Shown piece after piece: positions 8,101 to 55,070 of a stretch of 64,000 nt of DNA. The notes below the pieces were generated by a model that did not search any database, was not told the origin of the DNA, and saw only the letters and a list, made by a program, of their open reading frames with translations. Numbering within the stretch: the stretch's first letter is position 1; each line of letters opens with the position of its first letter. This DNA is from Lama guanicoe. Lineage: Eukaryota. The translations under genes and the position numbers were made by a program. Location of the stretch: positions 682,001 through 746,000 of the forward strand of contig MU053810.1 in the NCBI GenBank assembly GCA_013239625.1, written 5' to 3'.

Positions 8101-8922
8101 CCTCCTGACTCCCAGCGCATTGCCCTTTGTTATCCCATGACCTCCACTCTTTTGAGAATTAAGTCTTCTGACCTGTGGTTGTGGTAGTGTGGGAGAGATG
8201 GAACCTAGGGTTAGGGTTAAAGTCCTGTATTTGTAATTGATCATGAACTGAAAAAAAAAAATTGTTGCTAAAGTGGTTATGAAAAACCTAGTGTTCTAGC
8301 TAAAATATAATAGTACTATATTAAAATACAATATTCTAACTAAAGTTTGAAAAATTTAGAAAGTAATTTGATATTAGTATGAATCTATAGATTATGCTAG
8401 AAAATTAAGTGTGCAGTTGCCCTAGGCTTGCTTTTCTTTTTTCTTTCTTTTCTTTTTTTTTCTTTTCTCTTCTTTTTTTTTTTCACTAGCAGACGGTAAG
8501 AAAATTATTATGTATGTGTGAGATTACAGGATACCTAATTTTTGTAATATCATCAAGGAGTAGTGTGACCCACGTGTGCATTTTCTGTGTAACAGGAGCT
8601 TAGCCTTCAATTGATAAAACTTTAAGATAATTTAAGAAAACATTTACAATAAAACTTAACATTAAATGTTTTGATTCAGTTCATTACATAATAGAGTGTA
8701 CTTTTCTATAAAGAAGAATATAATGCATTTAAAATTTATCGAGGTACTACTGCAGAACCACTACATTGTTGACTTCTCTCAGTATCTATACCTTTATTTC
8801 TAAAATGCTGATTATATTATCTACCTGATAGGGTGGATATTAGGCTCAGCAAGATAAATAATGTGTATTAGATACCTAGAATGGGGCTTGGCACATTGGT
8901 CAGAACAAAATAAATGACAATA

Positions 8923-9007
8923 TTTTTTTAGTGGAGTCACTGGGGATTGAACCCAGGACCTCATGCATGCTCACCATGCACTCTACCACTGAGCTATATC
9001 CGCCCCC
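8923..9007 (-). mobile_element. tRNA-derived SINE (camelid Vic-1-like)
   Basis: Reverse complement shows A box TAGCTCAGTGG, B box GGTTCAATCCC and an A-rich tail. Confidence 0.85.
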
Positions 9008-25300: not shown

Positions 25301-28300
25301 ACTTTGCCTTTTCTCAAACACAGTACTGTTCTTTAATGGAAACCTGCTGTTTGTGTGTCTGTCTGTTTCTCTTCCGCCTTTAGGTTAACCAACCTAAATT
25401 TAATCAGAGACGTATCAGCAGTGCCAAATTCTTAGGAGAGCTGTATAATTACCGAATGGTGGAATCGGCTGTGATTTTTAGAACGCTTTATTCTTTTACT
25501 TCGTTTGGTGTTAACTCTGACGGGAGCCCAAGTTCCCTGGACCCTCCCGAGCACCTTTTCAGGATTAGACTAGTGTGCACTGTTTTGGATACCTGCGGCC
25601 AGTACTTCGACAGAGGTTCCAGTAAAAGAAAACTCGATTGCTTCCTTGTGTATTTTCAGGTATATAAATTGAAGTATGCAGTGGGGCATCATTGAATGCA
25701 TTGCTTGTGTTACAGAAATACTAGAGAAGAAATGCTGAAGCATTTATATATCATGCATAAGATATATTCATAGTTAGATTAATTGTTCCTGCAAGAATGC
25801 TTTAGAGATTTTAAAAATATATGATGAATTCTATCATATAAAGATTGTGATAATGTTTTAACTGTTATGAAGGGTAATTATTGATCATTAATTTTGAGAA
25901 TTATTTTGGTATAGTATAGATTATTTGGTATTTGGTACAGTATTATTATGAATTTAATTACTTGTAATATTTATCCATTTGATAACATTCTTCTCACTCA
26001 TCTGTGTTCTGGTTTTACATCTAAAGTTGTTGTTTCTAAATGATTTTTTTTTTAAGTAAAAACCTCCATGATTTTGGGGAAAATGTTATTTTTAATGCTG
26101 AAAGAATTATTTGTTCATTCATTGCTAAATTCTTGGATTCTGTGTTTCCTATCTTAATTTAGGTTGCTCATGTAAACTTGTGATTTAGGGCAAGTGCAGT
26201 ATAAATTAAATTCAGATACAAATATAGAGACATTTCTGCAACAGTTGGAGTTCCAAATGTTAGCTTGTGGGTTGGTTGTTTGAAATCGAATCACTATTTC
26301 CCATAAAATGCAATATTATATGTACTAATTAGGGGAACCATCTTACTGTTGAATTCTCCAGATGTTACTGAAATACAGTACCACTGGTAGCATGCAATTC
26401 TTTTTGATCATTCGTTTCTACATAATCTATTGTTAGTATTGTTTTCATTTATCCATTGTTGAAGAAAATAAATTTAAAACTGTAACCAGGTATCAAATAT
26501 ATATCCACGTACTAGCTGTTGCTAAGTAGGGGTAATTACTTGGCGAAGAGCTGTTTGTTAACTTTTTCTTACTACTGTACTTTTGCATTAGAGGACTGCT
26601 TGTTACTCCCTATTTTCTGAATTGGTGAGCCAAAAATGGGGAGGGGTTTTCCAGATTTGATCCCTGTTGCATGTAAGGACAGCCTTAAGCTCGACTCTGC
26701 CTGTATTGAAAACTACAATTTTGCTGCCAAATGTCAGCTGTAACTATCAGCATCCAAAGCAGAATCCCTTTCAGGAAAGTATTCTTATTTGCACTTCCTA
26801 TGACATTTTTGCAGATCCCTCAGGCAGAGTAAAGAGCCACTCAGAAATACGCAGAAGCAGAGGAGACAAAAGTATTTTCCACACTGACTAATAGGCAGGA
26901 ATGTGTAACAGGGATGTACCAAGGGCATGGGAGTGAGAAGTGAGTGAGGTCTGGGAGATGTGGTCAGTGTGTTGTGCCTGTAACAGAGAGTGTCCAGTTA
27001 AGTATCAGAAAGCAGATAGAAAGATTCACCTGCAGTGGTGCTTCTAAACTTCAGTGTGCATGCACATTGCCTGGGTATATTGTAAAATGCAGACTATGGT
27101 CTAGGGTGGGGGCCTAAGATTCTGTATGTCTAACAAGCTCCCAGTTCCCTTACTTTGAGTAGCAAGGACCTAGAAGAAACTGGAGAGGACGATTAAACAC
27201 CCAGAGCAACACTTGGTTATATGCAAGTAAATTCTTGGGTTGTGCTTTTTTAGTTAAGGTAAACTTGTGAAATAGATCGAAGGAACCAGGCCCGGAGAAG
27301 AGGAGGAGAGTATCTAAACAGTGCCATATACACAGTAGATGTTTAATAAATGCTTGTTGATTACTGATTTTTATGTATTCAGGAACCTGTCTTCAGATAC
27401 TTTAATTGACCCTTTAAAAAAAATCAAAGCAGGTAGTATAGAGAAAGTAATTAAAATTTATCAAAACCATGGCCTTGAATTAGGTTTTTTTGTTGCTATT
27501 GTTAAATATTTAAACCCTATTTGGGAGTAGAGTTTCTGTTTTCAGAACCTAAAAATTTGTTTGGTATTTTATTTATTTATAGTTTTTCCTTGCCTTTGTA
27601 AAAAGATTATGACCATTATAATAAAAAGTATATTTAAAGTCACCAAATGGCTTAGAAACTGCATGGATGGAGGGGAGTAAGTGGCCTAGGATCATTGCTA
27701 TTGACCACTAATAAAAGTGGTCGGTGTCTTGTACAACTCTAGCTTCCTTATCACGTATAAGTAGGTGATGTCCCAATACAGACTGTTATTTTAAAGTATT
27801 CTGTTACGAATTTCTTGTAGCTAAATTTATTTTTCATTTATTCTCAGCGTTATGTTTGGTGGAAGAAAAGTTTGGAGGTTTGGACGAAAGATCATCCATT
27901 TCCTGTTGACATAGATTACACGATCAGTGACAGCCTAGAACTGCTAAGACCGAAGATCAAACTGTGTAATTCTCTGGAAGAATCCATCAGGCAGGTACAC
28001 GCCTTGGAGCGAGAGTTCTTAATAAAACTGGGTAAGCAGTGAACTACAGAGAGAAGAATCGAGATGGTGTTTGGCAGATTGTTGTTAGAACTTGCTTTAT
28101 AATGTTTCTCGTCAGCATCTACTTCTGTATACTTTCTGTTTTTGATGCTGAGTGTCACGTAATAGTGTTAGGTGAGACCTGGGTAGCGCACTTCTTGGTT
28201 TCATTAAATAATCCCCAATTGGCCGAAAACAGTCACTAAGACCGAAGCAGACGATAGTGGGGGGGTTGTCTCGTTTCTAAGGACTAGAGAAAATGCAAGA

Positions 28301-31300: not shown

Positions 31301-34300
31301 TTCCTTTTAAAATAGATCTCTCTGAGCTTCATTCATCTTTTCTCATTTTTTTTAAATCTCCAAACTTAAACGTACCTATTTTAATCACTCTGCGTCTGTA
31401 TTTTTGTTGGTTCTTAATTGCTTAGACTTAAGACACTAGAGTCATTTTTTGCTTTTGTTGGTTGTGTTAGTTATTCAGACTTTCTGGGCTTCAGTATACC
31501 TCATAAAAATCAAAGGGGTAAGTCACATCATCACTAAAATTTCTGTCTGCTCTAATTGTCTAAGATTCTATAAATAAACAAGTATTTACTAAACACCTAC
31601 TGTGTATTTATCAATATATGGCCTCTAGTAAGTTCTGAATATTTAAAAAGAAGTTTTGTGTCCTCAAGGGTCTTATAACCTGATGTAACATGTATTGAAA
31701 TCATCAGAAAAAGGATTACATGGTGTATCCTTAAATGTTAAGTGCTGTAATCAGTTCCCCAAGCGCTTAGGAGCAAGTAGGAGAGAAAGTAAGACTCAGT
31801 GAGTTTATGCAGGAAGTAAAACTGAAGTTGAAGATTGTATAGGATTTGAAAGTGCATAGTGAAGGATATTCTGTGTTGAGAAGTGTATTTAGCAAGATTC
31901 CAAGATTAGTGTGCTTTATGACAGGGAAGAGTCTGACCAGCTACAGGACAAGGCTTAGGCTTAGGGAGTGTGGGGGAAAGTCGGATCAGATGAGGCCATG
32001 TTATGTGCATCTTGAAAGTGGGAGAGTAGCTTGGAATTCGTGGTGACAAAGAATTGACTCGGCAGTGAAATGTGGATGAACGAGGGGAGGTGGAGGCAGG
32101 TGCTAGCTGGGGAGTTCCGTTGGGAGGAAAACGCTGTTACTGAAGGAAGGAAGAAGATCTGTGGTGACACAGCTGCTAGTCTGCCTCCTTCCCTCGGTCT
32201 TAATTTGCAGACATTCAAATTGACAGCCAAATGTGATTTCTCCATTAAAGTGACATAACGGTGTCTTTGAGTTTTTAGAGATTGTTGAAATATCATTTGA
32301 TAAAAGGTGTGACCAGGGCTTCGTTTTATTTATGTGGCTGAGGCTGCACCTTAAGTGCTGCTACTGTTTGCCTTCGTACATCTGAGACTGAGGTAAACAG
32401 TTTGAAGCTCTGAGAAAAGAAAAACTTTTTTTTTTTAGTGGTTAAGAAATGTATCAGTGCTCCTTTGTTGAAATGGTCTCCCTATGTAGTTTTTAAAATA
32501 TTTCTCAAAATAGTTTTGAATTCTGTTATTTTATTATTCTGAGAACATGGCTGTTGAGTTTTCTTACTTAATATGTACTTTAAATGACTTGGTATAATAG
32601 TCACTGTGGAAAACTTGTCGCTGTCTTTTTTTTTAATGTATTTTTCCATTTTCTCCTCAAGGCCTAGTAAATGACAAAGACTCAAAAGACTCTATGACAG
32701 AAGGAGAAAATCTTGAAGAGGATGAAGAAGAAGAAGAAGGAGGAGCTGAAACAGAAGAACAATCTGGAAATGAAAGTGAAGTCAATGAACCAGAAGAAGA
32801 GGTGATGACTTTTATTTATAGCAGATCGGTACTTTTGTACAAGTGATTCTGTGAGCCAAGGTTTTCTTTAATGTATAAAATAAGATCTCTCCCTTAGTTT
32901 TATTAGAATAAATGTAACGACTAGTATAGATCTATTATAAAACCCTGATTAAATAATTAAGAGGGTTTTTTAATAAGAAAATGCTGATCATAGGATTTTA
33001 AAAAAATTACTGTTATTATTACTGTTTTCCCCTTGGGTGGAAGGTAATTAGATTTTTTTTTTTCTTTCTTTCTTTTAACAGAGGTACTGGGGATCGAACC
33101 CAGGACCTCATGCATGCTAAGCATACCCTCTACCACTGAGCTATACCCTCCTGACCCCCAAATTACTACTATTAAAACCTTTTTTCAGAGCAGCTTTAGG
33201 TTCACTGCAAAATTGAGGGGAAGTTGCAGAGATTCCTCGTATACCGCCTGTTCCTCCTCAGTCACACAGCCTGTCCCCCATTATCAGCATCTCCCACCAG
33301 AGTGATGCATTTGTTACAGTTGATGAACCTACACTGTCATCACCCAGAATCCCTCGTTTATATTACAGTTTACTCTTGGTGGTGTACCGTGTATGGGTTT
33401 ACCTGAATGTGTATGATGACGTCTGTTCATCAGTATAGTTAGGATTTTTATTTAATAAGCAATCTGAAGGAAAAATTGATCTGCTGTGTATCTTAATACC
33501 ACTTTTGAATTTGGATTTTTAAATTTACATGTTTTATGATAAAATTACTAATTAGATATTAATCACTTTATTTTTCCCAGATCTAATGGCATATGAAATC
33601 TGAAAATCATGTACCGTAATCATTGATGAGCCCTTTTGTTTTTACAACTCTGCTAGGCCAAACCATGTGAAATGACTCTTTTATCATTTTGGACCTACCA
33701 GAAAGTCATTTTCATATGGTTCAACCTAATAGTTTTAATTCTTTCCCTTTTTCTTCTACACCTACTTAAAAGTTCCATCTAAAATAATAGTACCTAGAAT
33801 TTGCTTCATAATCTGGACGTAGGCTGGGGAGTGAGTGAGGGATATAGAAGAAACTGTAAACTGGCCCTGAGCTAATAACTGTTCAGTTGTGTAATAGGGA
33901 AGTAAGGATTCGTTATGCTGTTCTATCGACATTTATATATATATTTAAATTAGACAATTAAGAAAGTAAAAAGCAGGATGAATAAGAACAGCAATAAAAT
34001 ACTAACGAATATGAAATTTAAACCGTGGAATTAGCACTTTTTCACTTGTTTTAGTTTAAGTGTAAGCTTATAATTATGATTTTATGTGTATGGTTTTTTT
34101 TTTTGTGTTCCTTGAGTGCTTAAAGCATTTAGGAAAGTGTGATTTTAATTAAATATTGAAAAAGTTTAGATTGGTAGTCAATATTTAAATGTTTTGGTGA
34201 AATTGAATGTAACTTTTTAAGTTTTGATTTATTTGAGTAAATAGAATGTAAATAGAGAATGTGGGTTGTTTAATGTATGAAGGAATGTTAATTACTGAAC

Positions 34301-37300
34301 GCATTCATAAGATAGATTCATAAACTGGATTTTTAAAAAGCTTCATTTAGAATGAAAGAAAAATGACCCGTAATTTAAAATTTCTACAGTTAAAAGTAAA
34401 AATCCTTAAATCTTTGTTTCTTTCAGCCCTGAAGTTCTGTAGCTGTTAATGAACATTTCATGTGATTTGACTACATAGCAAATAGCATTATTGTTAATTA
34501 AAAACGAAGGATTATGGGGGAGAGGGTATAGCTCAAGTGGCAGAGTACATGCGAGATCCTGGGTTCAATCCCCAATAGTACCTCCATTAAAAAAACAAAT
34601 TAAATATAAGTAAATAAACCTAATTACCTTCCTCCCCACCCCTGCAAAAAACTAAAAAAAACCCCACAAACAAATGATTGTGTAACAGGCAACATAAACA
34701 ATAATGTATGACTTCTGTAACAGGCTAGCATTTGTAGACAGTAGAAATATATGCACTTTTATGTTATTATTTTGCTACCATTTTTTCCCAGTTTTATTGA
34801 TACGACTGATACAACATTGTATTAAAGGTGTACATATGATTTGATACATACTTTATATATATATGGATATAGAAATGACTAACATAAGTTTCGTTAACAT
34901 CCATCACCTCACATAGTTGCAAGCGCTTTTTTCTTGTGATGAGAACTTTTACTATCTACTGTTTTAGCAAATTTCAAAAATATAATACAGTATTGTCAGC
35001 ACTGTCTCTTTCCAACCGGAGAATCCCCCTAAAGTAGACAAATAAATTGGTAAGAATTTAGAACTGGAATATGTTTTTACAAATTGACTTCTGTGTAATA
35101 GAAGGACATTATTATATCCTATAAATATTTGAGTAATTGCTATGTATTGTTTTTTCCTTTAAATGCATTTTTTCCCTTCTCAAAAGTGAACTTTATAATT
35201 TTAAGATTGTATCATTTAAAACTATTTCTTACTTTTCTAATTGCAAAGTGAGTATTATACACAATACATGTGTGTTTGCTAAGTGGAAAAACAAAACGTT
35301 CAGTAGGAAGACTCATGAGCCTTGTCTGGGCGGAGAAGTGAAAGAGCCTTGTCTGGGCGGTTTAATTTAAAGGAATGAAGTTGGACTAGTTGACTCTCCC
35401 ACTGGAGACCACCGTTTCCCATGACTGCTCTCCAAATACAGAGAGGAGAAAATTCTTAGAGAGAAGATGGGTTGATGATAATGTAGTAAGAGCAGTGTAG
35501 GAAGTTCTATACTTACCTCAGCTGAGAAAGAGCAGGGCTAAAGTCCAACTCTTCAGAAACATTGTACTCTTTTATCTTGGTCCTCAACTCTTTGAAGCTC
35601 CACTTTTGAAGTTACTCTTAGCACCTGACAACTAGAATATTTTCTCCTCAGTATCAGCTGTGTAAGTTAAAGGTAGCTTTAGAGACGAAGTAAGTGTTCT
35701 TCTGCCAAAATTCTAAATTTCCACAGGATTTATACAACTTAACAGAAAATGCAAGATGTATTATTGTCAAAGCAAAATAGTTATTTATTGAGCATGATCA
35801 CTGTATTCATACTTCATTTCACATGTATTCATTTCTCTTAGCACCCTATGAGTTAGGTGAGAAATAAGGCACAGGTAGGTTAATAATTAGCCCCAGGTCC
35901 CAGCAAGCCAACATTTGAACTTGGACAGTTAGATTTGTGCTGTGCTCCCTTCCTGCTTTCCTTAGCTCAGACTGTGTGGTCCATTGACTTCCTTACCCTG
36001 CAGGTTATAATGACTGTGTGCTGTGAGGTTAGGACAATGAGATTCTTGTTCAGCATTTTAATTTCAAAAGTTAATGCATTTTATTTTGCCTAAGCAATAT
36101 AAAAAATAAAGGGTGAGGGAGAAAGTTTAATGCATTTTAGCTTAGTTTTTGAAAAGGAAGAATCTTTTAAGTGTTAAGAGAGGATTAATTTTTTCTGGGG
36201 CCAATTTAAGAGCATTTCTATTGCAAATTTAGTTTTGAATTAGTGCCTTCTTAGCACAGCAGGCAGTGCGTCAGTCTCATAATTTTGAATTATAGAGTTA
36301 TGTCAAGAAAAGTTTATGCATTTGAAAAAAAGAAGTTAATGCATTTCTGTACTTTCCCCAAGTATTTCCACTTTAGAAATTCTAAAAGTTTTCACTGTCC
36401 ATATAGTAAGTAGTAATACACTGTTTGGATTTTTGAAATTAATTGCTGTGTATAGTAAAACTATTTTAACAAATTTTTAATCATTTGTTTTCTGTTAGGA
36501 ATTATTTCTCGTTCACTTTGCTTGGCATAATGAGAAGCATCTGGGTATAGTGTAGTCTTTTTTTTTTTTTTTTTTATTTTATTGAAATTAAGTGTATAGT
36601 AAAACTATTTTAACAAATTTTTAATCATTTGTTTTCTGTTAGGAATTATTTCTCGTTCACTTTGCTTGGCATAATGAGAAGCATCTGGGTATAGTGTAGT
36701 CTTTTCTTTTTTTTTTTACTGTCTAGCTCTTCCTGACAAAGCATGTGTCGTTGGGCAAGTCACTCAACTTCTCTGAGCCTTAAGTTTTTTCACATATGAA
36801 AATGAGGTCAGTAAAGCTTACCCTTCCTTCTTCAGAATTGGGTAGAGCCAACAGAATTATGTGAGAGCACCTTCCAGACTGAGGGGCTTTGTATAGCATA
36901 GTGCTTTATAAGATGTTGTGTCATTGCCTTCAGATGGTAATGGTGTTAAATTTGAACTATTTATCACTTTTCATTGCAGGGTTAGGTGGGTATTGAAGAA
37001 CTGCTATGAGAAAACCAGTCTTGAGTTAGTTGGGGAGGGGAAAATACAAAATGTTCAGGAAAGTCATTCCTTGTGAAATTTAAGGAAGAGTTTCTACAAA
37101 GGATCTTCCTATTATTAGGTCAGTGGAAGATAGCGAAATGGGTTTTCAGCTGCTGGTGTGTAGTAAGTGGTCCCGGCTGACTTCGCCCTACTGGTCTAGG
37201 CAGACTGCATGGAAGACTGAAACTTGAGAATAATGGACAATTTATACAGAAGTTTTAACATCTTTTTAGTAACATCTTTCAAAATGTTTTAATGTTTTGA

Positions 37301-40300
37301 ATGTTGAACAATTTCAGGAGGGTTCTGATAATGACGACGATGAAGGAGAGGAAGAAGAGGAAGAGAACACAGATTACCTCACGGATTCAAACAAGGAGAA
37401 TGAAACTGATGAAGAAAATACTGTACGTATGGCTGAAAATTTGGTTTTTGAAACTGCTTCATTTTCATAGTATTTCGATTTTAGTCACAGAAGCTTTGGT
37501 TTTTGTGATTATTGAAATAATATTTCTTTGGAGATTCATTTTCAATATGTTTTCCTAAGTGCTTTTCTTTATTAACAAGTTCTTTGAATATTTAATAATG
37601 TTCTATATTTTGTTCATTCATTGCTTGAGTTATGTTGAACAAGTTATCAATACAGAAGGCTCTGCCGTACAGAACACTATTAAAGTTAGAATTCTGGTCT
37701 GAATTCTCGTTTCTGTTTTGTTTTAATAAGGAGGTAATGATTAAAGGAGGTGGACTTAAACATGTACCTTGTGTAGAAGATGAGGACTTCATTCAAGCTC
37801 TGGATAAAATGATGCTAGAAAATCTTCAGGTATTAAATGTTGCTCTGTTCCAAAGTACTCAGTACAAAATATTGCCGCACATTTGATTCTGGTTAGAGGG
37901 TCTCTACTATCTAAGTATTTGCCTCTGTGGCAGCTTTTTCCTGATTCAGACACTTTGCAGTTGCCAGTGCTTCTTGCGTCCCACACCTTGATGTGCATGT
38001 TTCTTTAAACTAGAGTGAGGGAAAAATGTAGTAAGTTTAAGACTTGAAACAGAGTAATTTCAATGTATCAGCCTCCACCTTTTCTTTCTCAGGTCATATC
38101 CTGTTTCTAAGACCCCTTACTTGCAGTTTGTTTACAAGTCAAACTACAGAAGATAAATATTTGGGGAAATTTAATTTGGTAAATTTTTAAGCTTGGTTTA
38201 TAATTTGAATAACTTGTACATAAATTCTCGAGGATGATTGGTTATGTGATGTTTAAAAAATGTTGCTTAATGGTTCCTGATACTAAGATACTAGATTTTA
38301 TAAAAAGCCCCATCTTCCCAGTGATTCAGTAATCACATTTTATTATAGTTAAAACTAAAATTCCGTGGGCTGCGTACTTCTGCCCCGTACATAGCTGCTG
38401 TTACGCCCTGTGGTGACTGGAGAAGAGTGCCTTTGCTGGAACGGTGGGCAAAAGCCCCACGGAGGGGCTCAGTGGTGAACTGCGGACAGGGGGGAAGTGA
38501 AAACGCCAGACACAGGTTGAGCTGACTCTTGAGAAGTTTTGCTAGAAAGGGAAGAGAAATGAGGTGCAGCTAGAGAAGTCATAGTGAAGACTGGAGGGTT
38601 GTTTTTAAGGTAGAACCTAGGTATTATGGTGTATATGCCAGTGGAGTAATTCTTCGGAGAAGAAATACTGGATTTTACTGTCATTGATGCTACCAAGGCC
38701 AAAAGCTGTGATAATGTACAGATTAGCATTACAGATGTATTAGGCCAATTTGCATCTTCCTCCATACGTGAAAATTTCTTCATACATCTAGAAAGCTCTT
38801 AATTTATGAAATAAATCTTATCATTCAGGAGCACAAGTCATCAAATAAAACATGATCATTGTAATCCCTTTGAAGAGGTAATAAACCGTTTACTTCTTAA
38901 AGAACTGTTTCCTGTCAGAGGAGAGTCCAAAATAGACCTAGAACATGGCAGTTTCATCATGATGAAGTTAACACTTCAAATCAGTTGAGGGAAACTGCAT
39001 TATTCAACAAATGCCCAATGAAAATAAAACTGGATTTCTGTTTTATTTCCACACCAGAATAAATTGCAAATCTATCAGAGAATCTTAGGAACTGTGAAGA
39101 CCGTTGAGCCCGGCATTAAGCCTTTACCATTTCTCTTCACACAGTGCCGTCTCATGCCGTTGGTATTCCCATGTTGCAGTTAAAGAAGCAGGCCTGCAAA
39201 GACAAAAAACTTGCCCAAGGTGGAAGGCTAGCGAGGGGTGCAGTCTCTTATCAACCATTTGTTACATTGCTATCCAGCACAGAACGCCATAAAAACCTTA
39301 TAGAAATAACAAGCCAGGAAAAAAGTACCTGCAGCCTACACAGCACAGAGTTAAATACCTGTACTGTACCACAGAGATCTTACACACTAAGGAGAAAGAT
39401 GAATGACTCAGTTTGTTGCTGTTGGACAGAGCGATCACAGCCTGCTAACATGCACTGAGAAGCAAACAGCTGGGCCTTTATCAAATCGTCAGATCTTCAG
39501 GTTTAAAAATGGCAGTACCCTTTGTGGTTAAGTGTGGGTAAACATACAGGTTTTGTAAAAGTAAACCAGTGCAGCCTTTTTTAGGGAGGAATTTAGGAAG
39601 CCTGTCAGATGGGCTGCCATTTGATTAAAAACGCACCCTTAATAATACTCCGTCAAGTGCATGGAGTTAAATATATCACAGAGCTGTTACCTTGTAGTAG
39701 AAAAAAGCTGTCTGTGGATAGAGGAGCAATTCAATAAATAAGGACACACCGTTGTAATTAGCTCTGTATATTGTGAACTAGATTCCCAGGATACACAAAA
39801 AGAAGAAAAGCTTGTATGTTTAGTATAGAACAGTGTGCATCGTGGCTGCTCGTATTTGTATGTGTATATTGAATATGTTTATATGTGAATATATGCAAGA
39901 CAGTCTGAAAGGAGGTGACCCACTGTTAATAGTTGTTGCATCTTGGAGTCGGCAGAGGGAGGCAGCTGGAGGGATTGATATGGACACACTTAATAGTATA
40001 TTTTTGTATTAAAATCATTTTTGAAAATAATGTTAATTTGTAATCAGAAAGATAATTTACAAATCAAGATTTGTTTAACATGATTCTTTCAAATTTTAAG
40101 CAAAATGTCTTAGTAAATCTTATGAACCTGGGAGAACTTCAGGTAAATTCTAGCAAGTTGGAACTGAGAAATCAAAAACAATAAAACCTTACACTTTTAT
40201 TACCATTTTGCTTGATTTGCAAGACTCGCAAATATGGAACCTATATCAAAAGACTGTTTAAATAGTAGTAAAGCAGTTTTAACACCTGCATGGCCTTTCA

Positions 40301-43300
40301 GCATTACCTGCTTGGCTTTGGAGAGTCATGTTCAGCTCTTGTCTCATTTGTACTTCATTCATCAGACTAGAGCATTATTTGAGGTTCCCTGACTGCGTCC
40401 TTGCTTTTGCACGTGTTTTTCCCTCGCCTAAATCCCCTCCATATCCCCAGACTGCTCTTTCACTGTCTGCTTGGAAGAAGTCAGCTGAAGTCTTTAATGT
40501 TCTCAAGTGTCCCATCTTCATTCAGCCTTTTGTGAAATCTCAGCACCCACCCACCCTCAAACAGGCCCATGTAGTCCCTCCATCCCCAGCACACATTATG
40601 CATACCTCAGATGGCGCGTAATTATTATTTCTCTCCCGTACTGAACAAGTTTATGACTCTTTGAGGGTAGAAACTATCTTTTAATACTATTATCTCCAAG
40701 CCTAACACACAGTAAGTTATTGGTGAAGGTTTGTTCAAATAATTGGTTGATAGATCCAGTGTGAATGTTAAAAATAATTGGTATCAGCAAGCAGGAAGTT
40801 TATCTGAACATCAATAGATTCCATTCACTGTTAAATATGAACTGAGCACCTGCTGCGTGTGAAGCACTGCCGACTGAGAACATCAGGGAGAGTGTATACA
40901 GTCATCACCCCAGCAGTCGGGTGGGGGCTTCCCACAGACGAGCAGGCAGTCGTGGCCCTAGATAATCATGAAGGAAGATGTGTGCTGTGAGTGTGAATGA
41001 AAGGGCACAGTGCGTTCGAGGAGCGGGAATGTCATAGAGCCCACAGCACTGTGTGTGCGCACTTGGGAGAGGCTGGAGCGACATAGAAACAGGAGCCACA
41101 TCCCATTGTCCTTCCGAGGCACGTGTAAGGATCGGGAGGCGGGGACACCTGCGCTTTCAGAAAGATTACTCTGGCTCTGATGATTGTTCTAAAATACAAC
41201 ACTGAATGGATTGTTTGCAGTTTACACGTATCCACAGGTACTTGGAATATTTACATTCTTTTTCATTTCTGTCTTTAAGCAAACGGTTTTGTAAAAGTAA
41301 ACCAGTGTAGCCTTTTTTAGAGAGGAATTTAGGAAGCCTGTCAGATGGGCTGCCATTTGATTAAAAACGCACCCTTAATAATACTCCGTCAAGTGCATGG
41401 AGTTAAATATATCACAGAGCTGTTACCTTGTAGTAGAAAAAAGCTGTCTGTGGATAGAGGAGCAATTCAATAAATAAGGACACACCGTTGTAATTAGCTC
41501 TGTATATTGTGAACTAGATTCCCAGGATACACAAAAAGAAGAAAAGCTTGTATGTTTAGTATAGAACAGTGTGCATCGTGGCTGCTCGTATTTGTATGTG
41601 TATATTGAATATGTTTATATGTGAATATATGCAAGACAGTCTGAAAGGAGGTGACCCACTGTTAATAGTTGTTGCATCTTGGAGTCGGCAGAGGGAGGCA
41701 GCTGGAGGGATTGATATGGACACACTTAATAGTATATTTTTGTATTAAAATCATTTTTGAAAATAATGTTAATTTGTAATCAGAAAGATAATTTACAAAT
41801 CAAGATTTGTTTAACATGATTCTTTCAAATTTTAAGCAAAATGTCTTAGTAAATCATATGAACCTGAGAACTTCAAGTAAATTCTAGCAAGTTGGAACTG
41901 AGAAATCAAAAACAAAAAACCTTACACTTTTATTACCATTTTGCTTGATTTGCAAGACTTGCAAATATGGAACCTATATCAAAAGACTGTTTAAATAGTA
42001 GTAAAGCAGTTTTAACACCTGCATGGCCTTTCAGCATTACCTGCTTGGCTTTGGAGAGTCATGTTCAGCTCTTGTCTCATTTGTACTTCATTCATCAGAC
42101 TAGAGCATTATTTGAGGTTCCCTGACTGCGTCCTTGCTTTTGCACGTGTTTTTCCCCCGCCTAAATCCCCTCCATATCCCCAGACTGCTCTTTCACCGTC
42201 TGCTTGGAAGAAGTCAGCTGAAGTCTTAATGTTCTCAAGTGTCCCATCTTCATTCAGCCTTTTGTGAAATCTCAGCACCCACCCACCCTCAAACAGGCCC
42301 ATGTAGTCCCTCCATCCCCAGCACACATTATACATACCTCAGATGGCGCGTAATTATTACTCTCTTGGGAGCTAATTCTAGTATTAGGAGGCAGACGTAG
42401 GGAAATACATAATGTCAGATTGGGGACAATGCTGTGAAGGACAGTCAAGTGAGACGGGAGGGAATAAGGAGACTGGGGTGGGGAGGCTGTTGTGGGTGAG
42501 TGGTCAGGGGAGGCCTGGCCTCAGGAGTCCTCTGTGAGGGGAGGGATAGTGTGTTCCCTCCCTGCCAGTACAACCTCAAAGAGATGATGCCTACCTTAAT
42601 TTTTTACCTCTGCTTTGCCAGGTTATTTCTTTCTACTCGAAGAATCAGAGTTGTCCAGTATGCCATTATTTTGCTATAGTGCAAGTAAAGCTTCAGCTAT
42701 GAAAACTGTATACCAGTTAGAATCATGGAGTGGAGGGCTGGGGAGAAGGCTCTACATTCTGACTCATGTTGACATAGTTAACTCTGACTTAGATCCAGAG
42801 TACTGCTGTCCTTTTCAGACACTGTCTTCTTAGTTCCTTTTCAGTCAATGTGCCTTTCCTTCATCCCAGACTCCAGGGTTATCAAGTTTTTAGGACAAGA
42901 CAGTTCCACCCTCTCTCACTCTCAGGCCAGAGTTGAGCCCTGGCATTTCCCCTCTCCTCCCAGTCCCTAGAAAAATTAGGTTTGGGGTTTTGTTTTTGTT
43001 TTTTAAGTCAAGATCCTAAACTTGGTGTTGGGGTGAGATCTTTGTAAAACTGTTCTCTTCAGAGCACCTGAAACTGTACTTGGTTATTAAGTACATGTTC
43101 AACTCATAAACATTACTTGGAATTTTGGGAAATGTTCAGTTTTAAGAACATTATTTGAAGAAAAATCACTGGTATTTTGTGGTCTGAAAAAGAAAGTATA
43201 TTTTGTTCTGATTTTTATTTCATTATTTGACTTTTGGGTGTTGTCCCTTCTGGTACAACGGTTTTTCTAGAAATGTGAAGTGTGTAGCTTTATAGGAATT

Positions 43301-46300
43301 TTTAGTTCTTAAGTGAAAGATCTCTTTGTGCACCGTATTTGTGCCCAGAAATAACCTTCTGTACTAAGTAGGAAAATAAAAATTTACGCCAATGAAGTGA
43401 GTATTTGAAAAGAAAGGATAATACTGTTGATAATTTTTCTAAATTTAAGTATCATTTAAATCTAGATTTAAATGAATTTGAATAATGAAATAAAATGTTT
43501 TGATTATTAGAGCAAAGGTTTTAATGTAGTGGAACTATTAGGTAATGTTTTAAAGAGCTTTTTGATTGTTTTAAGCTAATGCACAATATATTTGTTACAA
43601 TTTAATACTAGTTAACAACTCATTTTTTGGAATTAATACTTTCGAAGTGGTTTGTTTCACGTATCTTGTGACTGCAGTAGTTGATACTTACCATCATAGT
43701 AACTTGGGATTATATGTATGTATATACATACATATTTTTATCAGTTTCAGTTTGTTACAAAGTAGCTTTAAAATACAACTGAAATCACCTTTATTGCCAT
43801 TATTGTGTTCTAGGAAATCTAGCATGAGTGACTTCAATCTTTTTGTCATTTAATTTGCTGTAAGACAGTGCCTCTCTTTTTTGAAGTATCTTAGCAGCTT
43901 TACGATTAAGGCACCTGGTGAAGAAATTCATCAAGAATTCATCCCTTTTGCTCTCTGTATTTATTTATTACTGTCTCTTTTCTGTTGTTTTTAAGTGTAT
44001 AATACTTGAGAACTTTTCCTTTTGTAAAACTTGTCTCAGAGCATAAGATGTGTTTTTGTTTCTTTGTTTTCTTTATAATCATTTCCCTGCAGAAGATCTA
44101 GAACTTTCTAAAAAAAATTATTAGTCTTGTAAACGAATGAATAAAAACCTACGTTTTCCACATTTTAATCAGATCATCATGAAATTTGCTTTATAATTTT
44201 TAATCCTGTTTCATTAGTATGATCAGTACCATTAGCCATTAGGCTTGTCAGTACTAAATATGAAGGACGTTTCAGGCGTCATGATCAGAGTAAGGGGAGG
44301 AAGCGGCCATCCTGTCTTATTGCTGAGTGTGTTAATGTGGTGACAGACAGAGCATCTTAAACTTGCAGCTTGTGACTTCCTGGTGATGAGTAAAGTATCT
44401 ACCTACACTTCTTACCCGGCTGCTTTGCTTGAGTATTTTGTAAAACAGTAGTATGTCACTGCCTCTGTATTTGCATATATTTACAGCTATTTGAAACCAG
44501 TCAGTAAAACCAATGAGAGGAAAACCAGCCAGCTGATTAAGAGCTTTATAACGTTGGGGCCTGTGATTCACATTAAGAAAGTCAGGCTTCCAGCTCTTTT
44601 TTTTAACCCTTAGCATCACAGATAGTCATCTTATTTGATACTAGGAACAGAGAATGACTTTAGCTGCCCTCTCAAAGCCTTAGGGATTTCTATTGAGACT
44701 GAATATTTCAGTATTGCCCAGAACACCTACCTGTAATAAAATAATAAAGCAATTGTGATATTAATAATAACAGCTAAAATTTACTGAGTTCTTACTGTAC
44801 TTCAGACATTGTTCTTTTATATGTAATCATATCTTTAAAATTAATGTATTAATTTATATAGCCATGTCTTTGTTGATTTAAACTGACAGGTTAAATGTTA
44901 CTTCGAGTATCTGCAACTTGGATACACCTGCTAGACTCCACAGTTACTCCTCTAGGGAAAGATTAGAAAGTTGCTTCAAGTCCTCATTCTGGAAATTGTT
45001 CTCATAGCTGTGGTCTTTCTCTCTGGAACTTTCATCTCTGTCTCTGGTGGCATATGATTTGACCCAGCTCTGTTCCCAGGGCCTGTTGAATGGAGCTCTT
45101 CTCTGCTGCTAGTTTGGTAGCAGCTGCATTTGGAGGCACAGGCGCAGCAGAGCGCTTGCTGCGTGGCCGGCCCTGGAAGTGAGGGGTTGCGGTACGAGTT
45201 ACCGTGACGTTTCGCAGTGACTGCTGCTTGGGAAGAGTGACTTTATGGTGAAGTTTTTGTTGCGTGTATTAGATCCATGTGTCTGAGCTGAACTTTTTCA
45301 TTTAGTTATTTTTGTGTGTGTCTTCCTGAATTTTGAAAAGCAAATGAAAATGTTTATTGCAGGAAGTGATGACCATTGTATTTAACTTTGTTTCACTTGT
45401 GTTTGTTAGTAGAAATAGAAACAGTTGGGGCAAGCCTCATTCCTGATACAAATTACTTACTACAGAGGCCTGGGGACAGGTGTACAGAGTAGTTAAGGAT
45501 GTCAGTTTCTGTCTGTTGGTTGTTAATCTCATTCTTGCAAAGAAGGTGATTTTTCAAAAACTGTCTTTTTGATTCTATTTTGCTAAATAAAATAGTTTTA
45601 TTTTCACAACGTGTAGGAAGTAATGAGGGAGACTGTGAGTCTGGATGTCAATAAATTATTTACATGCATTACTAATAGGTAATATTTATGAAATACCTAA
45701 TACCTGCTAGGCACTGACCTGTGCGCTTTACATATTTTATCTTGTTTAATTCTCACAACAGCCCTAAAGTTAGAATTGATACCCTCGTTTTACAGATGAG
45801 AAAAATAGTGTTCTTAAGTGATTTGCTGGTCATACCAGTAAATGATAGGGCTAAGGATTAAACTTTGTCTGACTACAAAAACCCATGTTCTTAACATCTT
45901 TGCAGCACTGCCTAGCAAGTATATATTTTATGAAAGAACTGATTGTGGAAAGGAAACTTGGGGAAGGGGCAGGAAAAAAAAGAGCATAGAATTCATGTGA
46001 AACAAGAAAAAATTGACCATCATCAGACCACATATCTTAGAATTTAGAAACAAATAGCCCACAGCCAGCAGTTTTTAAAGGAGATGTGGTTCAGGAGGAT
46101 GAGAAAGTGCTTTGTTAAAAGGCTGTGTTCAGAGACTTAAGAACAGGAAGGGGCACAGTTTGTGGAGAGAGTATGGAAAAAGCAACTATTTACTTTCCTT
46201 TTTATCAAGAAGAAAGATTTTAGTCTGAAGGGATAAATTAACGATTGGGTAAAATTAGATAGTATTAAAAGAGATTCATCTGCTTTAAATAAGTCGCAGT

Positions 46301-49300
46301 CTTCAGGCATAAGCAAATTACATCCTCAAGGACTGAAAGGACCTGTGTGTAATTGCAGATCAATTGTCATTAAACTCAGAAAAGTCCTACAGAATAGGAC
46401 AGCAGTCAAAAGATTCATAGTGGTCAAATCTTTTGTTTTTCAAGACCAGGGAAAAAATACATTCTGAAAACTATATTCCAGGAAACTTGATGTCAACTTT
46501 AAGCATAGTTCTAGATTGAGTTTAAAGACAGGTAATTTTAGTCATTAGGAAAATGAAAATTAAAACCAAAATGGATATATTAACTATATACTCACTAGAA
46601 TGCCTAAAATTGAGAAGACTGACCATATCAATATCAAGTGTTGGCAAGGGTATGAAGGAACTGGAATTCTCATATACTGCTAGTGGAATGCAAACTCCTG
46701 GAAAACAGTTGAGCAGTTTCTTAACCAATAAAACACATCAGATAGTCCCACCTTTTCCGTGCCTAGCATTTTTTCATTTAAGCAAAATGAAAACACACGT
46801 CCACACAGACAATTGTATGTGATTTATGACTGTATTTGTAATAACCCCAAAACTAGACGCACCCTGAATGCTGCCAGCAAGCGATCGGGTAAACAGATTA
46901 TGGTGTATTCACTCAGGGGGCTCTTTCTCTTTCCCAGCGTCACGGCTGTCTTCAGTAAGATGAAGGTCTGTTAATCCTGAAGGTGGACTAGATTTGTTCT
47001 GTATGGTTCAGAAGGGCAGAACTGGCTCCAGAGGGTAGAAACGAAAGGGTGCAGATTACAGCTTGCTGTATAAAAGCCTTTCTGACAATTACCCATATAT
47101 AATAGGGTCTACACAATGGAAAATGATCCCCTGTTGCTTAGATGCGTGCTACCGGACAGGGGACAGGAAAGAGGAGCGTCTGCTTTCCGTGGAGGTTGAA
47201 CTTGGCCTTCCACTTCCCATCCAGCCCTAATAGGTTGGTCTCTTGTAGAGTAACACTGTTATGTTTATGCCCTTAGACCGTCTTTATTGACTTACTAGGA
47301 AAGGAAAGATTATGATTTTCCTAAACTTGTTTAAATCTACTTATTTTTTTTCCCTCTTGATTTTCTCAAGCCATTTGTGACTTCTTTGTCATTTTTTTCT
47401 CAGTTTAAGATCCTTAATGTACCCATGTCTTCCCAACTTGCTGCAAATCACTGGAACCAGCAACAGGCAGAGCAAGAAGAGAGGATGAGAATGAAAAAGC
47501 TCACGCTAGATATCAATGAACGGCAAGAACAAGAAGATTATCAAGGTATCAGCTCGTTTCCAGGACGGAAGGGGGAAATCGCGATGCCCCTTGGGCTTTT
47601 AGAACATAGGATGTCAAAGGTGTTGTTCTCCACCTTTTCACGGCGTGTTTGTGTATATTTAGCCTGAGAGGCTGATTGTTTTTTACATCCCACTCTTCTC
47701 TCACTTACTTGTAAAAGAACACTAGTGGAAGTCTCATCACATTTTGCTAACTCCATAGTTCAGTTAGATTCCATCCTGTTAGAGCCATGTTTGCAGGTGA
47801 CACAAAGACCAATTTTTAGTTGCCTCGTGTTGCCAGTCAACTGTGAACAAATTAACTCAACAAATACCATCTCGTTTTGTCTGTTTGATAATTCTGGTCT
47901 TAAAGGCCCTCTGTTCCTTCAAATTTGAGGGTATATTCAAGTTAGGATTCCAGTTTTATGCAGACATACCCAGCACACTTGGCTTAACTGGAACTTTAAA
48001 TACAGAGGTCATGGACACCTCCTGAGCCAGCCCAGCCCTTCATATAGGGCTGTACTCAAAAACTGGAAGAGATTGCTGTGTAAATAAATAATTGGTTTTC
48101 TATCTTTAAGTCCCACTTCTAGAATACTCTCTTCCAGCTGACACTCGACATTCTTAATAACAAATAATGGTAGTTAACAGTCAGTGTAAGTGCTTACTGT
48201 GGGTCAGACACTTGAGTAGCTTTCAAAGCATTTAATCCTCACAATTCTGTGAGATCAGTGCCCATTATTATTTGCATCTTACACTTAGAGACACTGAACC
48301 GAAAGTCCCATGGCTAGTAGGTGGCAGAGCTGGGACTCGAGCCAGTACTGTCTGGCTGCCGTCCTGCCTGCTTCTTACACTGTTGACTGCCTCACAAGAC
48401 ACTTGGGTGGTGGCCGCACTGGCTGTAAGGGGGGCTTTGAGTGTTACGTGGCAGTCAAGAGCGTATCTCATCTCTAGATTGCTCTTTGGTACTTGTTCAT
48501 CGTTTCAATCTGTGCAATGGTTGCTGTTCCTCAGCCGGCTCCCTGAGAGACTGTCCTGGGCTCTGGCTTCTTGAGAGGAGTGCATTTACCAAGCGTAACC
48601 ACCTGTTCTGTTTGGCTCCTAATTCCAGAAATGCTGCAGTCTCTTGCCCAGCGCCCGGCTCCAGCAAACACCAATCGGGAGCGGCGGCCGCGTTACCAGC
48701 ATCCGAAGGGAGCGCCTAATGCAGATCTAATCTTTAAGACTGGTGGGAGGTAGGACCCTCTCTTGTTTCTCCCTTAGCCATTTTCTTCATCATGTCCGTG
48801 TGAATAACTTAGATAAGTATACTGGATTATACTTAATGATAAAGGCTGAATTAGCAAACTTAGAAAAGTTGTTGAGTTATAGATAGGTGAGAGAAGAAAA
48901 CCTTTTAGTACAATATTTACAGTTTTGGTTTTTGGGGTTTGTTTTTTTTGAATCTTGATTTCAGCCACACCATTCTTGGCTGTTGCTTTCTCTGAGTGGA
49001 GTTACTTGTATTTTTAATTTTTCTCTTTTGCCTTTATGGAGAGGACTAGTTTTAGATTCGTTTGAGAGAAATCAGAGGCTTTTTGTTGGGACCTCTCAAG
49101 CCACTGTGAAGTAATCGTGATGTTTACTAAAAGTCAAAACCCGTTTGCTAGTAAGACTTTCAGACGTGCAGGCTAGAGTTTGTTCTGGGGTATTTTGTTT
49201 GTCCGTTTTTGAGTTATAAAATGTCCTGCAGGGGTTCATGCCGGTTCTTCTTAAACGTGAGTTGCCTAATGTGAAATAATTAAAACTCTGTAAGGAATAT

Positions 49301-52300
49301 CACATGGAAGATGTTCCCTAATAAGACCTCATTCATCTTTTTTTAAGGAATAAAGTTGTTAAAGTTTCTCTGGGATCTGATCTAAAGACCTGTCGGTCCC
49401 GCCTTCTATCTTGTGTCTGGGTTATAATCCGCAGTGACGTGGGCTTTGCTGCTCTGCCTGCTCTCCCTTGGGCATCCAGGTTTAGCCTGCGGCTGTACAA
49501 CAGCCCTCAGATGTCCCCTTGTTGTTGGACGGAGACAGGCACACGGGTGCAGAAAAGGGAGCTGGGGTCGCAGAATTGGTTCAGTGTCGGGAAGAGTAGC
49601 GTTGGGGGAAATGCAGGTGTCAGAGCCTTTGTCTTTTACTCTCTAAATGTGTTTGTGTGTTCCTGGTAACATTTTTCTTAGAACAGTATGCTCAGACAAC
49701 TCTAATCCAGTTGCAGTTTAAGAAATTGGTTTGTCATGACAGCTTAGGAATCTATTTTTTGTCAGGAGGAGGGTTCTGTTTTTTAACACCTGTTGAGTTT
49801 TTCAGAAATGATGTACAAACCTGTCTGATTCGGTGTAAGATGCTAGGTTGAGCCTGTCCGTAATACCTTTTATTATTGCTGCTAAGATGCAGACGCTGGC
49901 TCAGTTAAGAAAGGGGCCATGGACATTTTCGTTTCCTCCTTTTACATTTTCTTAGAGGAGCTTTAAATATATACCATTGTGTTCTTGGTAACGTCTGTTC
50001 TCTCTTCTTGTCTCGTTATTAGAATATTTCTATCTTGACGTTTTTCCATCAACTGCACCTGTCTTAGTGCAGCCTTCCATCCCTGAACAGCATTGTCCCT
50101 AATCCCTTCTCCTCTCCGTTCAGATACTGCAACTGTAGCATCTTTTACTAATTTTTCAATGTTTGGGTGACTTTACAGAATCAGTAAATATGACATTTGC
50201 TGCATAAATACTATTTGCAGTAGGATTCACTCCCTGCAGCTTACATTCATCCAGCACCTTCCATGGGTTCAGTCCTACACTATGGAAAATTCAAAAGTAA
50301 AAGAGTCTTCACTCTCAAGCTTACAGTGCAGTAGGCAACCGAGTCCAGCTACTTGAAAGAGCTAGTTCTGCCCTAGTCTAAGTAGCCAGCGTTTCTTAGG
50401 CAGCAGGGAGCAGAAATACAGGGAAACGTGTTAGCTTACATGTGTGGTAATAATAGATGTGTCTGTGAACACGGAGGCATGCCTTTTTTAGTTTGCTACC
50501 AGTTACTCAGTCGTCTTTCAGAATTCTTTGTTAACTTTCTGTTTTGCTTCCACACACACACTGTGCCTGCCTCCCAGCTTTTCCCCGACACTGGCCTCCC
50601 CGAGCCAGCGCTACCTCAGCGCTCCGTTCGGTGCTCTAGGACGCCGTCTTGGCAGCCCTTGGCACTTGGACCCTCCTTTTCTTCTCGGCACACTCTCTTC
50701 CCTTGACCTTTGTGGCTCTGCTGTCTTCTGGTCTCTGTCTTCCCTCTGTGACCTCCGCTTCCTGGCTCCTGACTCTGGGTCGGGCTCGCCTCCACCCGGA
50801 GGGCTCGTGTCCCTCGGGCTGGTCCTGAGCGCTCCTCCCTCACCCCAAGCGCCCTCCGCCCCACCCGGGGCTCAGTTACCATCCACGCCTCCGGCCCGGG
50901 CATCACGTTTTAGTTGCTGACTGCACGTCCAGCTGTCTTCTGAACGGCCACCTGGATGTCCTACTGGAACATCAACCTCAGTGTGTCCCCAGCTTCTCTC
51001 CTCTGTCCTCTAGGTCAGTGAGCGGAAGCCCTGGCCACCCCCTTGTGCAAACTAGAAAAGACAGGTGTATTTTTGACCCTGTCCTCTCCCTCAGCCTCCA
51101 CATGTGGTTAGCTCACACGTCCTCTGACACTGCGTAAGCGGCTGTCTCTCTCGTGCCCCGTGTGCTCCACCCCCGCCGCCGAGGTCCTGCATCCAGCTGT
51201 CGTCACCCCTCGTCTGGGTCGCTGCCCGCGTCGGCTTCTCAGTCCCCAGTTTCCGCCCCTTCCACGCCATTCTCTGCTGCACCCACGCTGTCCTTCCTCC
51301 AGCGCAAGCCTGCCGCCGGGCCGTGTGAGCGAGCTGCCCCGCGCACACCCCGCGGGGGCGCCTCTCGGCTTGCGGGGAAAAGGCCAGGCCCCGCAGCCTG
51401 GGTGACGCGGCCCCGCGCGAGGCGCGCCGCCTCGCTGGCCTCCTCTCGCCCTCCTTTCCCCGGCTCCCACCGGGCTGGCCTTTCCGTTCTTCTCGTTAAG
51501 CTCTTTTTGCCTCCCTCTGTTTGGGACCCTGTCGTGCTCTTGCCCCGGACACCTTGTCTTGTTTTCCGTTCTGTCTCCTCCGCAGCTCTTGGTGCCTGGC
51601 ACAGAGTAGGTGCCTGGTAAGTATTTGCTGAATGGACAGGGGCTTTTAAAAATCTACGTTTAGCCATCTAATAAAAACGTCTTCTTGTGTTACGCTCCCC
51701 AACTCTCTCCTTCCCCTTTGTTTTCCTGATTTTGTGAGACTCCCACCGCTTGGGCTGCCCACTGTACCTGCTTTAAATCTTGTCTTAAAATTATCACTCA
51801 AAAAAAAAATCCTAATTTGTCCAGCACTCTTGAAAATGGCCCTCTGTGAAGTCTTACCGTTTTATGGTGTTTTCAAAGCCAGTGCTCTTAAAATGCTGGT
51901 GTGGATGAACATCGTAGAGGAACAAGCTAACGAGTAAACTTGGGTTTTTGAGCCTTTCAAGTAGCAAGAGTTCTTTGCTATGTTTTAAACTTGAGTTTTA
52001 AGTGAAGAAATGCAGTCATTTGGGAGAACGTACGTGATGGGGTGGAGTCTTTTGGTGGCTTGGCTTGGCTTTGTTTTCTTCTGTTTTTAACGCTGGGCCA
52101 GACCTGGTAGGAAGGTGTGTGTTGAGAGCCATGCTCCTCGGGCATCTGCGTGCTGAGTTCCTGCACAAAGGAGGCAGGAGGTTAAAATCTGCGTGAGGTT
52201 TAAGAAACTGCTTTCGGTTTTACTCCTATCTTGGCTACTACTTTTTTTTTAAGTTACTAATGTTGTTGACATTGTATGACGGATAAAAGGGAAGTTTATT

Positions 52301-53792: not shown

Positions 53793-55070
53793 TCCAGCAG
53801 CACGTGTCATTTCATTAGGTCCTGTATCTGATGTTGTGGATAGTGGAGTCCTCCAGCAATTGAGTGAGAGCAGTGGACACATCTCAGCATGTCGGTCTAG
53901 AGACTTGCGAACTTAAACCTGGGACAGGCTGGGGCCGTGAGGCGGGAAGAGCAGCCTCTGCCAACACCGGAACAAGCCGACGCTTCCCGACGAGGCGCGA
54001 AAGGCCTTTTGTATGGAAACCACGCGAGGGTTAATCTTCTGTTGAGAATGGCAGTCAAGGAATGAGACGGTTGACTTGACTCCTGAGCAGTTACACTGAG
54101 AGGAGCGTCAGTGAGATGACTGAGCCGGAGAAGAAACGGTTGTGATGGTAATGGTATGGGGGAAACGAACTTGAGGTTAAACTTGATTTGAGTTACAGTG
54201 TCTCTGAATTGAACATCCCATGTTGGAAAAAGATACACTTGGGGGCTCCAGGACTGCAGTAGACAAGCATAGAGCAAGCGGTAAAATCTCCTAGTGAAAG
54301 CGCACATGCAGGACAACAAAACGATGAAAGACCCACACACAGATAATCCACCAGGAAGGCTTCTGCTTAGGGATTTGTTTCAAGAGGAGCAAGAGATGAG
54401 GGAGGAAAACCAGTTTTGTCCATCAGAGTCAGTAATACAACATTGCCTATTAGGGTAAGAGGAGAACGTGGCGACTAGTGTGCAAAGAGCATGAACCCAG
54501 GCGGCGCAGGGGCGTCTGACACCAGCCTGAGCGCAGGGGTAGGTGAGCCCATTGTAAGTATCATCGAACACAAACAGCGTGCCAGGCAGACGTCACAGAA
54601 GACGGACGAAGGACAGCCAGGGGGGTCCGGAGATTTTGTTGACCTTCATGGGTTTACAGCCTCTGTCTCTCAGCAAAGTGTGGAAACAGTAGAGCTTTTC
54701 TTTTGCTTTGTTTTTGTTTTGTTTTGTTTTGTTTCTCCTCCCCCCACCCCACCCCCAAATAGAAACGAGGGTTCTTAGTCTGTTTCTGGCAATCTGTTAA
54801 TTTCTTAGGATAGCTGTCTTTCATTTGCTTTCCGATAGGCGTAGTAAATTTAGTTGAAGAGCACATCTGTATGCTACAAACTTGATTACATCTTTTCTAG
54901 CTATTTTACATTTTTTTCCTTTTTACCATGCTTCAGTTTCTGCATGTAGAATTAAATAAGAAACAAAAGTTGTAAAGTTGTAACATTTCACATGGAAATG
55001 CTGCCCGATCTTCACCAGCTTCAGAAATCTGACCTTTGCCGATGCTGCAATAAAGTGTTGTAATTTAGAT
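53793..55070 (+). other. UPF2: UPF2 3' UTR (~1.27 kb)
   Basis: Follows the stop codon, no repeat recognised within it, ends shortly after a canonical poly(A) signal. Confidence 0.8.

Follow-up and report, generated by a model that had tools for sequence, protein, structure and literature searches.

How did UPF2, an RNA-surveillance gene, come to lack a single exon in a guanaco assembly, at the place where a 1.08-kb block of upstream intron is repeated? The question is raised by a 64-kb stretch of Lama guanicoe DNA (contig MU053810.1; hereafter the window), whose open frame 25387-25662 is up to 99% identical to UPF2 (regulator of nonsense transcripts 2). Only the 3' half of the gene lies in the window, on the plus strand; the 5' half falls outside. 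Tblastn with four UPF2 proteins located 12 plus-strand exons between 10229 and 48749, encoding residues 615-1126 and 1183-1270 (numbered on a UPF2 protein of 1,272 amino acids, P0023). Every segment between residues 615 and 1270 has its exon in the window except 1127-1182, and this segment of 56 amino acids found no credible match across the whole 64 kb (best E-value 0.25, over six residues). We propose, with a probability of about 55%, that the exon was removed by a real deletion with templated insertion, for which the template was switched twice during replication of a UPF2 duplicate that is redundant. The duplication, the absent exon, the reading frame and five substitutions private to this copy are direct observations.

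The missing exon comprises 56 codons and encodes most of the UPF1-binding beta-hairpin. At a distant vertebrate locus, L001, residues 1127-1182 form a single phase-0 exon that begins with a Gln codon; L001 was the sole locus obtained from a metagenome scan for this exon (21 of 64 parts covered) and is too distant for intron alignment. A clean skip of the exon was seen in none of the 167 stored homologues having both flanks. Thirteen of these lack the exact exon motif, and they are mostly variants with a few odd gene models. The exon is also present in the camel proteins and in P0053, a protein carrying a residue that is otherwise non-mammalian and is common to the window UPF2 and Camelus proteins. 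The region of the lesion is organized as follows.

37731 to 37829, plus strand: UPF2 exon encoding residues 1094-1126 with the UPF1-binding helix (1111-1129 in a structural model), phase-0 GT donor, last exon upstream of the lesion (tblastn and sequence).
39549 to 40627 (1,079 nt), plus strand: copy 1 of the repeated block, intronic, the putative donor (self-comparison of the sequence).
40628 to 41284 (657 nt), plus strand: single-copy spacer, ending in an orphan acceptor plus five further bases.
41257 to 41282, plus strand: orphan splice acceptor and Gln codon, with a pyrimidine tract, AG at 41278-41279 and CAA at 41280-41282, putatively orthologous to the acceptor of the lost exon.
41285 to 42359 (1,075 nt), plus strand: copy 2, the putative templated insertion at the place of exon 1127-1182 (sequence comparison).
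42360 to 47403 (5,044 nt), plus strand: rest of the downstream intron, beginning within an old repeat remnant that we take to be an L2 element.
47404 to 47545, plus strand: UPF2 exon from residue 1183, phase-0 acceptor (tblastn).

The two copies are in direct orientation, 1,736 nt apart, and differ by eight substitutions (seven transitions, one transversion) and three indels; these counts and the copy boundaries reproduce those of an earlier note on this DNA. Substitutions amount to 0.74% over 1.08 kb. Transitions are in excess (7/8, P=0.003), two of the eight differences fall at CpG sites, one in each direction (P=0.015), and the window contains no N, hence no assembly gap between the copies. 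To judge from the sequence, the differences look like real mutations with a germline-like spectrum, as the earlier note had argued from the richness in transitions. Positions 39586-40119 and 41322-41855 form an identical run of 534 nt, and nine of the 11 differences lie on the right of this run.

Copy 2 starts 5 nt past the AG of the orphan acceptor. The 9.6-kb gap between the flanking exons contains 705 AG sites, of which 12 have at least 14 pyrimidines in 16 positions, and only the one leading into 41280 has a Gln codon next. That it ends in AAG does not speak against it, since the acceptors at 32662 and 37731 of the same gene also end in AAG. That 41257-41282 is the acceptor and start of the lost exon is thus a strong inference from the sequence. 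The AG at 41278-41279, the CAA after it and the start of copy 2 at 41285 stand where they had previously been placed, and the expectation that CAA opens the missing exon agrees with the exon of L001.

By alignment of the flanks of the two copies, which match poorly on both sides, the structure appears to require two joins without long homology. Short matches do occur beside them, 'aaac' on the left and 'ctctc' on the right, as had been noted; instead of abutting the joins, they stand 5 and 3 nt away from the copy. Such matches would arise by chance at rates of 0.028 (4 nt, left) and 0.0085 (5 nt, right) and are suggestive only. Exact microhomology at the junctions would be hidden inside the copy, and only the lost sequence would reveal it. 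Repeat-mediated recombination was considered as a cause and rejected, as the ends of the copy do not fit. A near-perfect tandem duplication of 144 bp (36448-36717; 1.9 copies, 99%) precedes the exon at 37318 by 600 bp; at its join, too, a short match of the flanks is separated by a gap of 5 nt, as at the left join of the 1.08-kb copy.

This anatomy, with at least two join-points and an insert copied from nearby DNA, is that of events attributed to fork stalling and template switching or microhomology-mediated break-induced replication (FoSTeS/MMBIR). The earlier suggestion of such a deletion with templated insertion therefore fits in its anatomy, while the microhomologies offered for it are offset and not at the joins. 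In the proposed course of events, synthesis would have entered the lost exon by 4-5 nt, slipped back about 1.74 kb and copied 1.08 kb of upstream intron; a second switch would then have carried synthesis over the exon to the intron beyond it, each join costing a few bases. The same product would result, indistinguishably, if a tandem duplication came first and a deletion later. The joins are real in the DNA with a likelihood that we put at about two-thirds; their existence in molecules, like the replicative route and the redundancy of the gene copy, is something we infer.

The nearest known counterparts are human PLP1 deletions of FoSTeS/MMBIR type with local templated insertion (PMC6902434). 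The guanaco event shares with them two join-points, apparently without long homology, an insert whose source lies 1.7 kb off and reads in the same direction, and imperfect short matches beside the joins. Microhomeology is reported at about 32% of the join-points of replicative rearrangements (PMC6902434), which the offset micro-matches at both joins resemble. The guanaco event differs in being known from an assembly alone, with no pre-event sequence, and in not being de novo but, by its 0.7% divergence, apparently old. It behaves as a FoSTeS/MMBIR event would, without being a proven case.

The exon loss itself had been recognized in the earlier note, which missed its likely context, both the essential nature of UPF2 and the signs that this copy is a duplicate and redundant. 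Mouse embryos null for Upf2 fail (PMC9687065). Together with the absence of skips among the stored homologues, this leaves a spare copy, a wrong assembly or something unusual; in a copy with signs of redundancy, the loss of an exon of an essential gene becomes much less surprising. Several of these signs lie in the coding sequence.

25582 to 28003, plus strand: five amino-acid changes private to the window copy (I925V, I970V, M975T, T979S and D1002A), in two neighbouring MIF4G-3 exons.

Over 475 UPF2 codons (nine of the 12 exons; the other three, which could not be aligned gap-free across the 13 rows, were dropped), no difference separates pig, horse and marmoset, while the window departs from them at seven sites, five of them private. 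Eleven of the 12 other mammals have between zero and two private changes. M975 is invariant in all 159 aligned homologues (of 162 full-length ones), and the window has T. The camel proteins keep the ancestral residues, so the private changes are either recent or errors. Five changes over about 1,416 replacement sites give 0.35%, close to half the divergence of the two intron copies, 0.37%. Protein searches with the exon that carries four of the changes (154 matches in one, 15 in another) and cluster look-ups found no protein with the window's set.

Part-length UPF2-like protein models are known from other camelids. In Camelus ferus, P0140 (XP_032329434.1) is a UPF2-like model of 458 amino acids with four changes relative to P0053. 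In C. dromedarius, P0060 and P0121 (KAB1253902.1 and KAB1253901.1; 655 and 657 amino acids) have two exons doubled and a broken frame in exon 1127-1182. The models of the two species have one derived residue in common. Like these, the window copy has kept its introns, as an unprocessed duplicated pseudogene or partial paralogue would; it shares with them an intron-containing 3' part of UPF2 in which a few replacement changes are private, and with the dromedary models damage in the same exon, a frameshift there and an exon loss here. It is at most a candidate orthologue, since the window lacks their derived residue and they lack its five changes. From the sequence, the UPF2 of the window is probably redundant and likely a duplicated pseudogene copy. 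An intact UPF2 would then lie elsewhere in the genome, making either altered product of this copy tolerable.

Several observations weigh against a real lesion in a decaying duplicate. Pangolin UPF2 likewise has five private changes. Four of the five changes in the window fall in one exon of 61 codons (P=0.005), unlike even neutral decay, and this clustering points to a paralogue in further decay that either converted this sequence or forms a mosaic with it. Three of the five occur in none of 213 stored proteins and are thus unconfirmed; the other two are found in a few other species. Apart from the lesion, the part of the gene in the window shows neither stops nor frameshifts nor damaged splice sites, and the 3' untranslated region (UTR) looks complete, although few stops or frameshifts would be expected at this age anyway. 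Nor did an intact second UPF2 come to light, in an analysis whose guanaco DNA was these 64 kb. The part-length camel models could themselves be assembly products. Between the two intron copies, each of the three indels is a deletion in copy 2 and falls in a short run of bases, a form that long-read errors can take. The differences are also unevenly spread (P=0.007 for the 534-nt identical run), which weakens the match of the two clocks; the run is possibly a gene-conversion tract or an effect of polishing, and the unevenness fits gene conversion or a chimeric consensus.

Some of these points lead to an assembly artefact, in which two haplotypes or collapsed paralogues were stitched together so that 1.08 kb was repeated and the exon dropped, the animal's own gene being intact. 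We regard this as the rival to be taken most seriously, though unlikely. It would account for an essential exon missing from a gene that is otherwise unbroken, and alleles would show the same transition-rich spectrum. The region apparently belongs to a segmental duplication, a setting in which mis-joins are common; another duplication, of 144 bp and near-perfect, stands 3 kb upstream, and the mosaic pattern of differences fits a chimeric consensus. A divergence of 0.74% in substitutions over 1.08 kb is high for alleles, although admixed haplotypes could reach it; typical camelid heterozygosity is about 0.2-0.3%. Heterotype false duplications are the main kind of false duplication; such errors persist in long-read assemblies, where 61-92% of those left are on the same scaffold (PMC9516828). 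The window resembles them in its two adjacent copies of about 99% identity in a probably duplicated region. It differs in that an exon was lost, not gained, in apparently requiring two separate joins without long homology, and in lacking an N gap between the copies, gaps being one of the marks used in PMC9516828. An artefact by itself also leaves the five replacement changes unexplained.

Public sequencing runs do not separate the two readings. In 14 of 24 rows (four organism codes, seven studies), 0.87-0.92 of the sequence words were found, a share no higher than either predicted ceiling, 0.922 if copy 2 is artefactual and about 0.936 if it is real with variants merged in contigs, merging being assumed. 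None of four frames crossing the joins was found in an exact look-up, and neither was any of six control frames.

It is improbable that the lesion is real and sits in the main UPF2 gene, as a heterozygous loss-of-function allele or as a fixed, viable, in-frame form without the hairpin. The skip would be in frame, the UPF1-binding helix, MIF4G-3 and the last exons with their polyadenylation signal are intact, and the first 10 kb bears no sign of a foreign gene: none of 79 plus-strand frames of at least 32 amino acids in 1-10228 matches Pfam, so that no foreign exon (USP6NL-type) was recognized, though short exons could escape this search. Against it stand the requirement for UPF2 in mouse embryos (PMC9687065), the lack of any skip in 167 stored homologues, the exon kept by camel proteins and P0053, and the low chance that a deleterious allele would persist until the copies had diverged by 0.7%.

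Slightly less probable still is the more far-reaching idea of a natural tuner or antagonist of nonsense-mediated decay in South American camelids, namely an expressed UPF2 paralogue, or main allele, in which the exon is skipped in frame and the hairpin lost. It would keep the UPF3-binding MIF4G-3 and the UPF1-binding helix, and the clustered MIF4G-3 changes would be part of its new role. Very improbable, finally, is an RNA-mediated origin, in which a spliced or lariat-derived intron piece was written back at the splice acceptor: it would explain a left join 5 nt from the exon edge and the CAG/GT motif at which copy 1 starts, but the insert is an internal intron piece with no donor site at its right end, no poly(A) tail and no target-site duplication, and the deletion is left unexplained.

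The consequences for the protein follow from the position of the lost exon. The UPF1-binding region of UPF2 spans residues 1105-1207 and consists of a helix and a beta-hairpin (10.1101/2022.03.26.485946, PMC9162471, PMC12170185, PMC12775136); a match to PDB entry 2WJV was also obtained. In a model made of an intact homologue, the helix covers 1111-1129, and the strands cover 1168-1177 and 1180-1189 with a predicted local distance difference test score (pLDDT) of about 50; this single-sequence fold is of low confidence (mean pLDDT 57) and was used only for strand placement. Residues 616-1126 and 1183-1272 are encoded in the expected exons, as in canonical vertebrate UPF2. With 1127-1182 absent, in contrast, the UPF1-binding region is incomplete and the hairpin cannot form as described.

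If the copy is transcribed, the exon would be skipped from 37829 to 47404, in frame because both flanking exons are phase 0, and the product is predicted from the model to lack the linker, the first strand and the turn of the hairpin. Alternatively, use of the orphan acceptor would add four codons before a stop at 41292-41294. An AATAAA lies about 190 nt downstream, at 41469-41474, and copy 2 could serve as a short alternative last exon. Six RNA-type rows of the public runs (four studies) contain 0.15-0.22 of the words of this exon-free stretch and give no evidence of expression.

Replication slips and decaying partial paralogues are both of known kinds, and the lesion is best read as a further scar of a replication slip, left in a spare copy of the gene. 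It could serve as a marker for distinguishing camelid UPF2 copies, and it warns against inferring UPF2 loss from this assembly; if the assembly is wrong here, the lesion marks a region of mis-joining. Wider importance would come only with expression of the in-frame product without the hairpin, or with this being the main allele. The UPF2 hairpin binds the same surface of UPF1 as SMG6 (PMC11162806), and an expressed in-frame product would be a natural test of UPF2 without its hairpin, of interest to RNA biologists. We found no publication on a UPF2 duplication in camelids, on alpaca UPF2, or on UPF2 M1173 and the hairpin, in literature coverage that leaves out most subscription journals and supplements; the accessible part of PMC6598621 holds nothing on this locus.

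The 595 translated codons contain no stop and all 12 exons have AG/GT ends, which indicates good base quality; the MIF4G-3 exons are intact.

10229 to 37422, plus strand: nine UPF2 exons encoding residues 616-1093, with open frames and AG/GT ends (tblastn and sequence).
48629 to 48749, plus strand: penultimate UPF2 exon, intact (tblastn).
53783 to 55054, plus strand: last UPF2 exon, with the final codons and stop at 53783-53792, the 3' UTR and an AATAAA signal at 55049-55054.

A patch rich in G+C and CpG occupies 51200-51500 within the last UPF2 intron. Four copies of a short tRNA-like interspersed repeat, presumably a camelid short interspersed element, lie in UPF2 introns at 8921-9007, 14537-14637, 18707-18793 and 33054-33154, one of them inverted.

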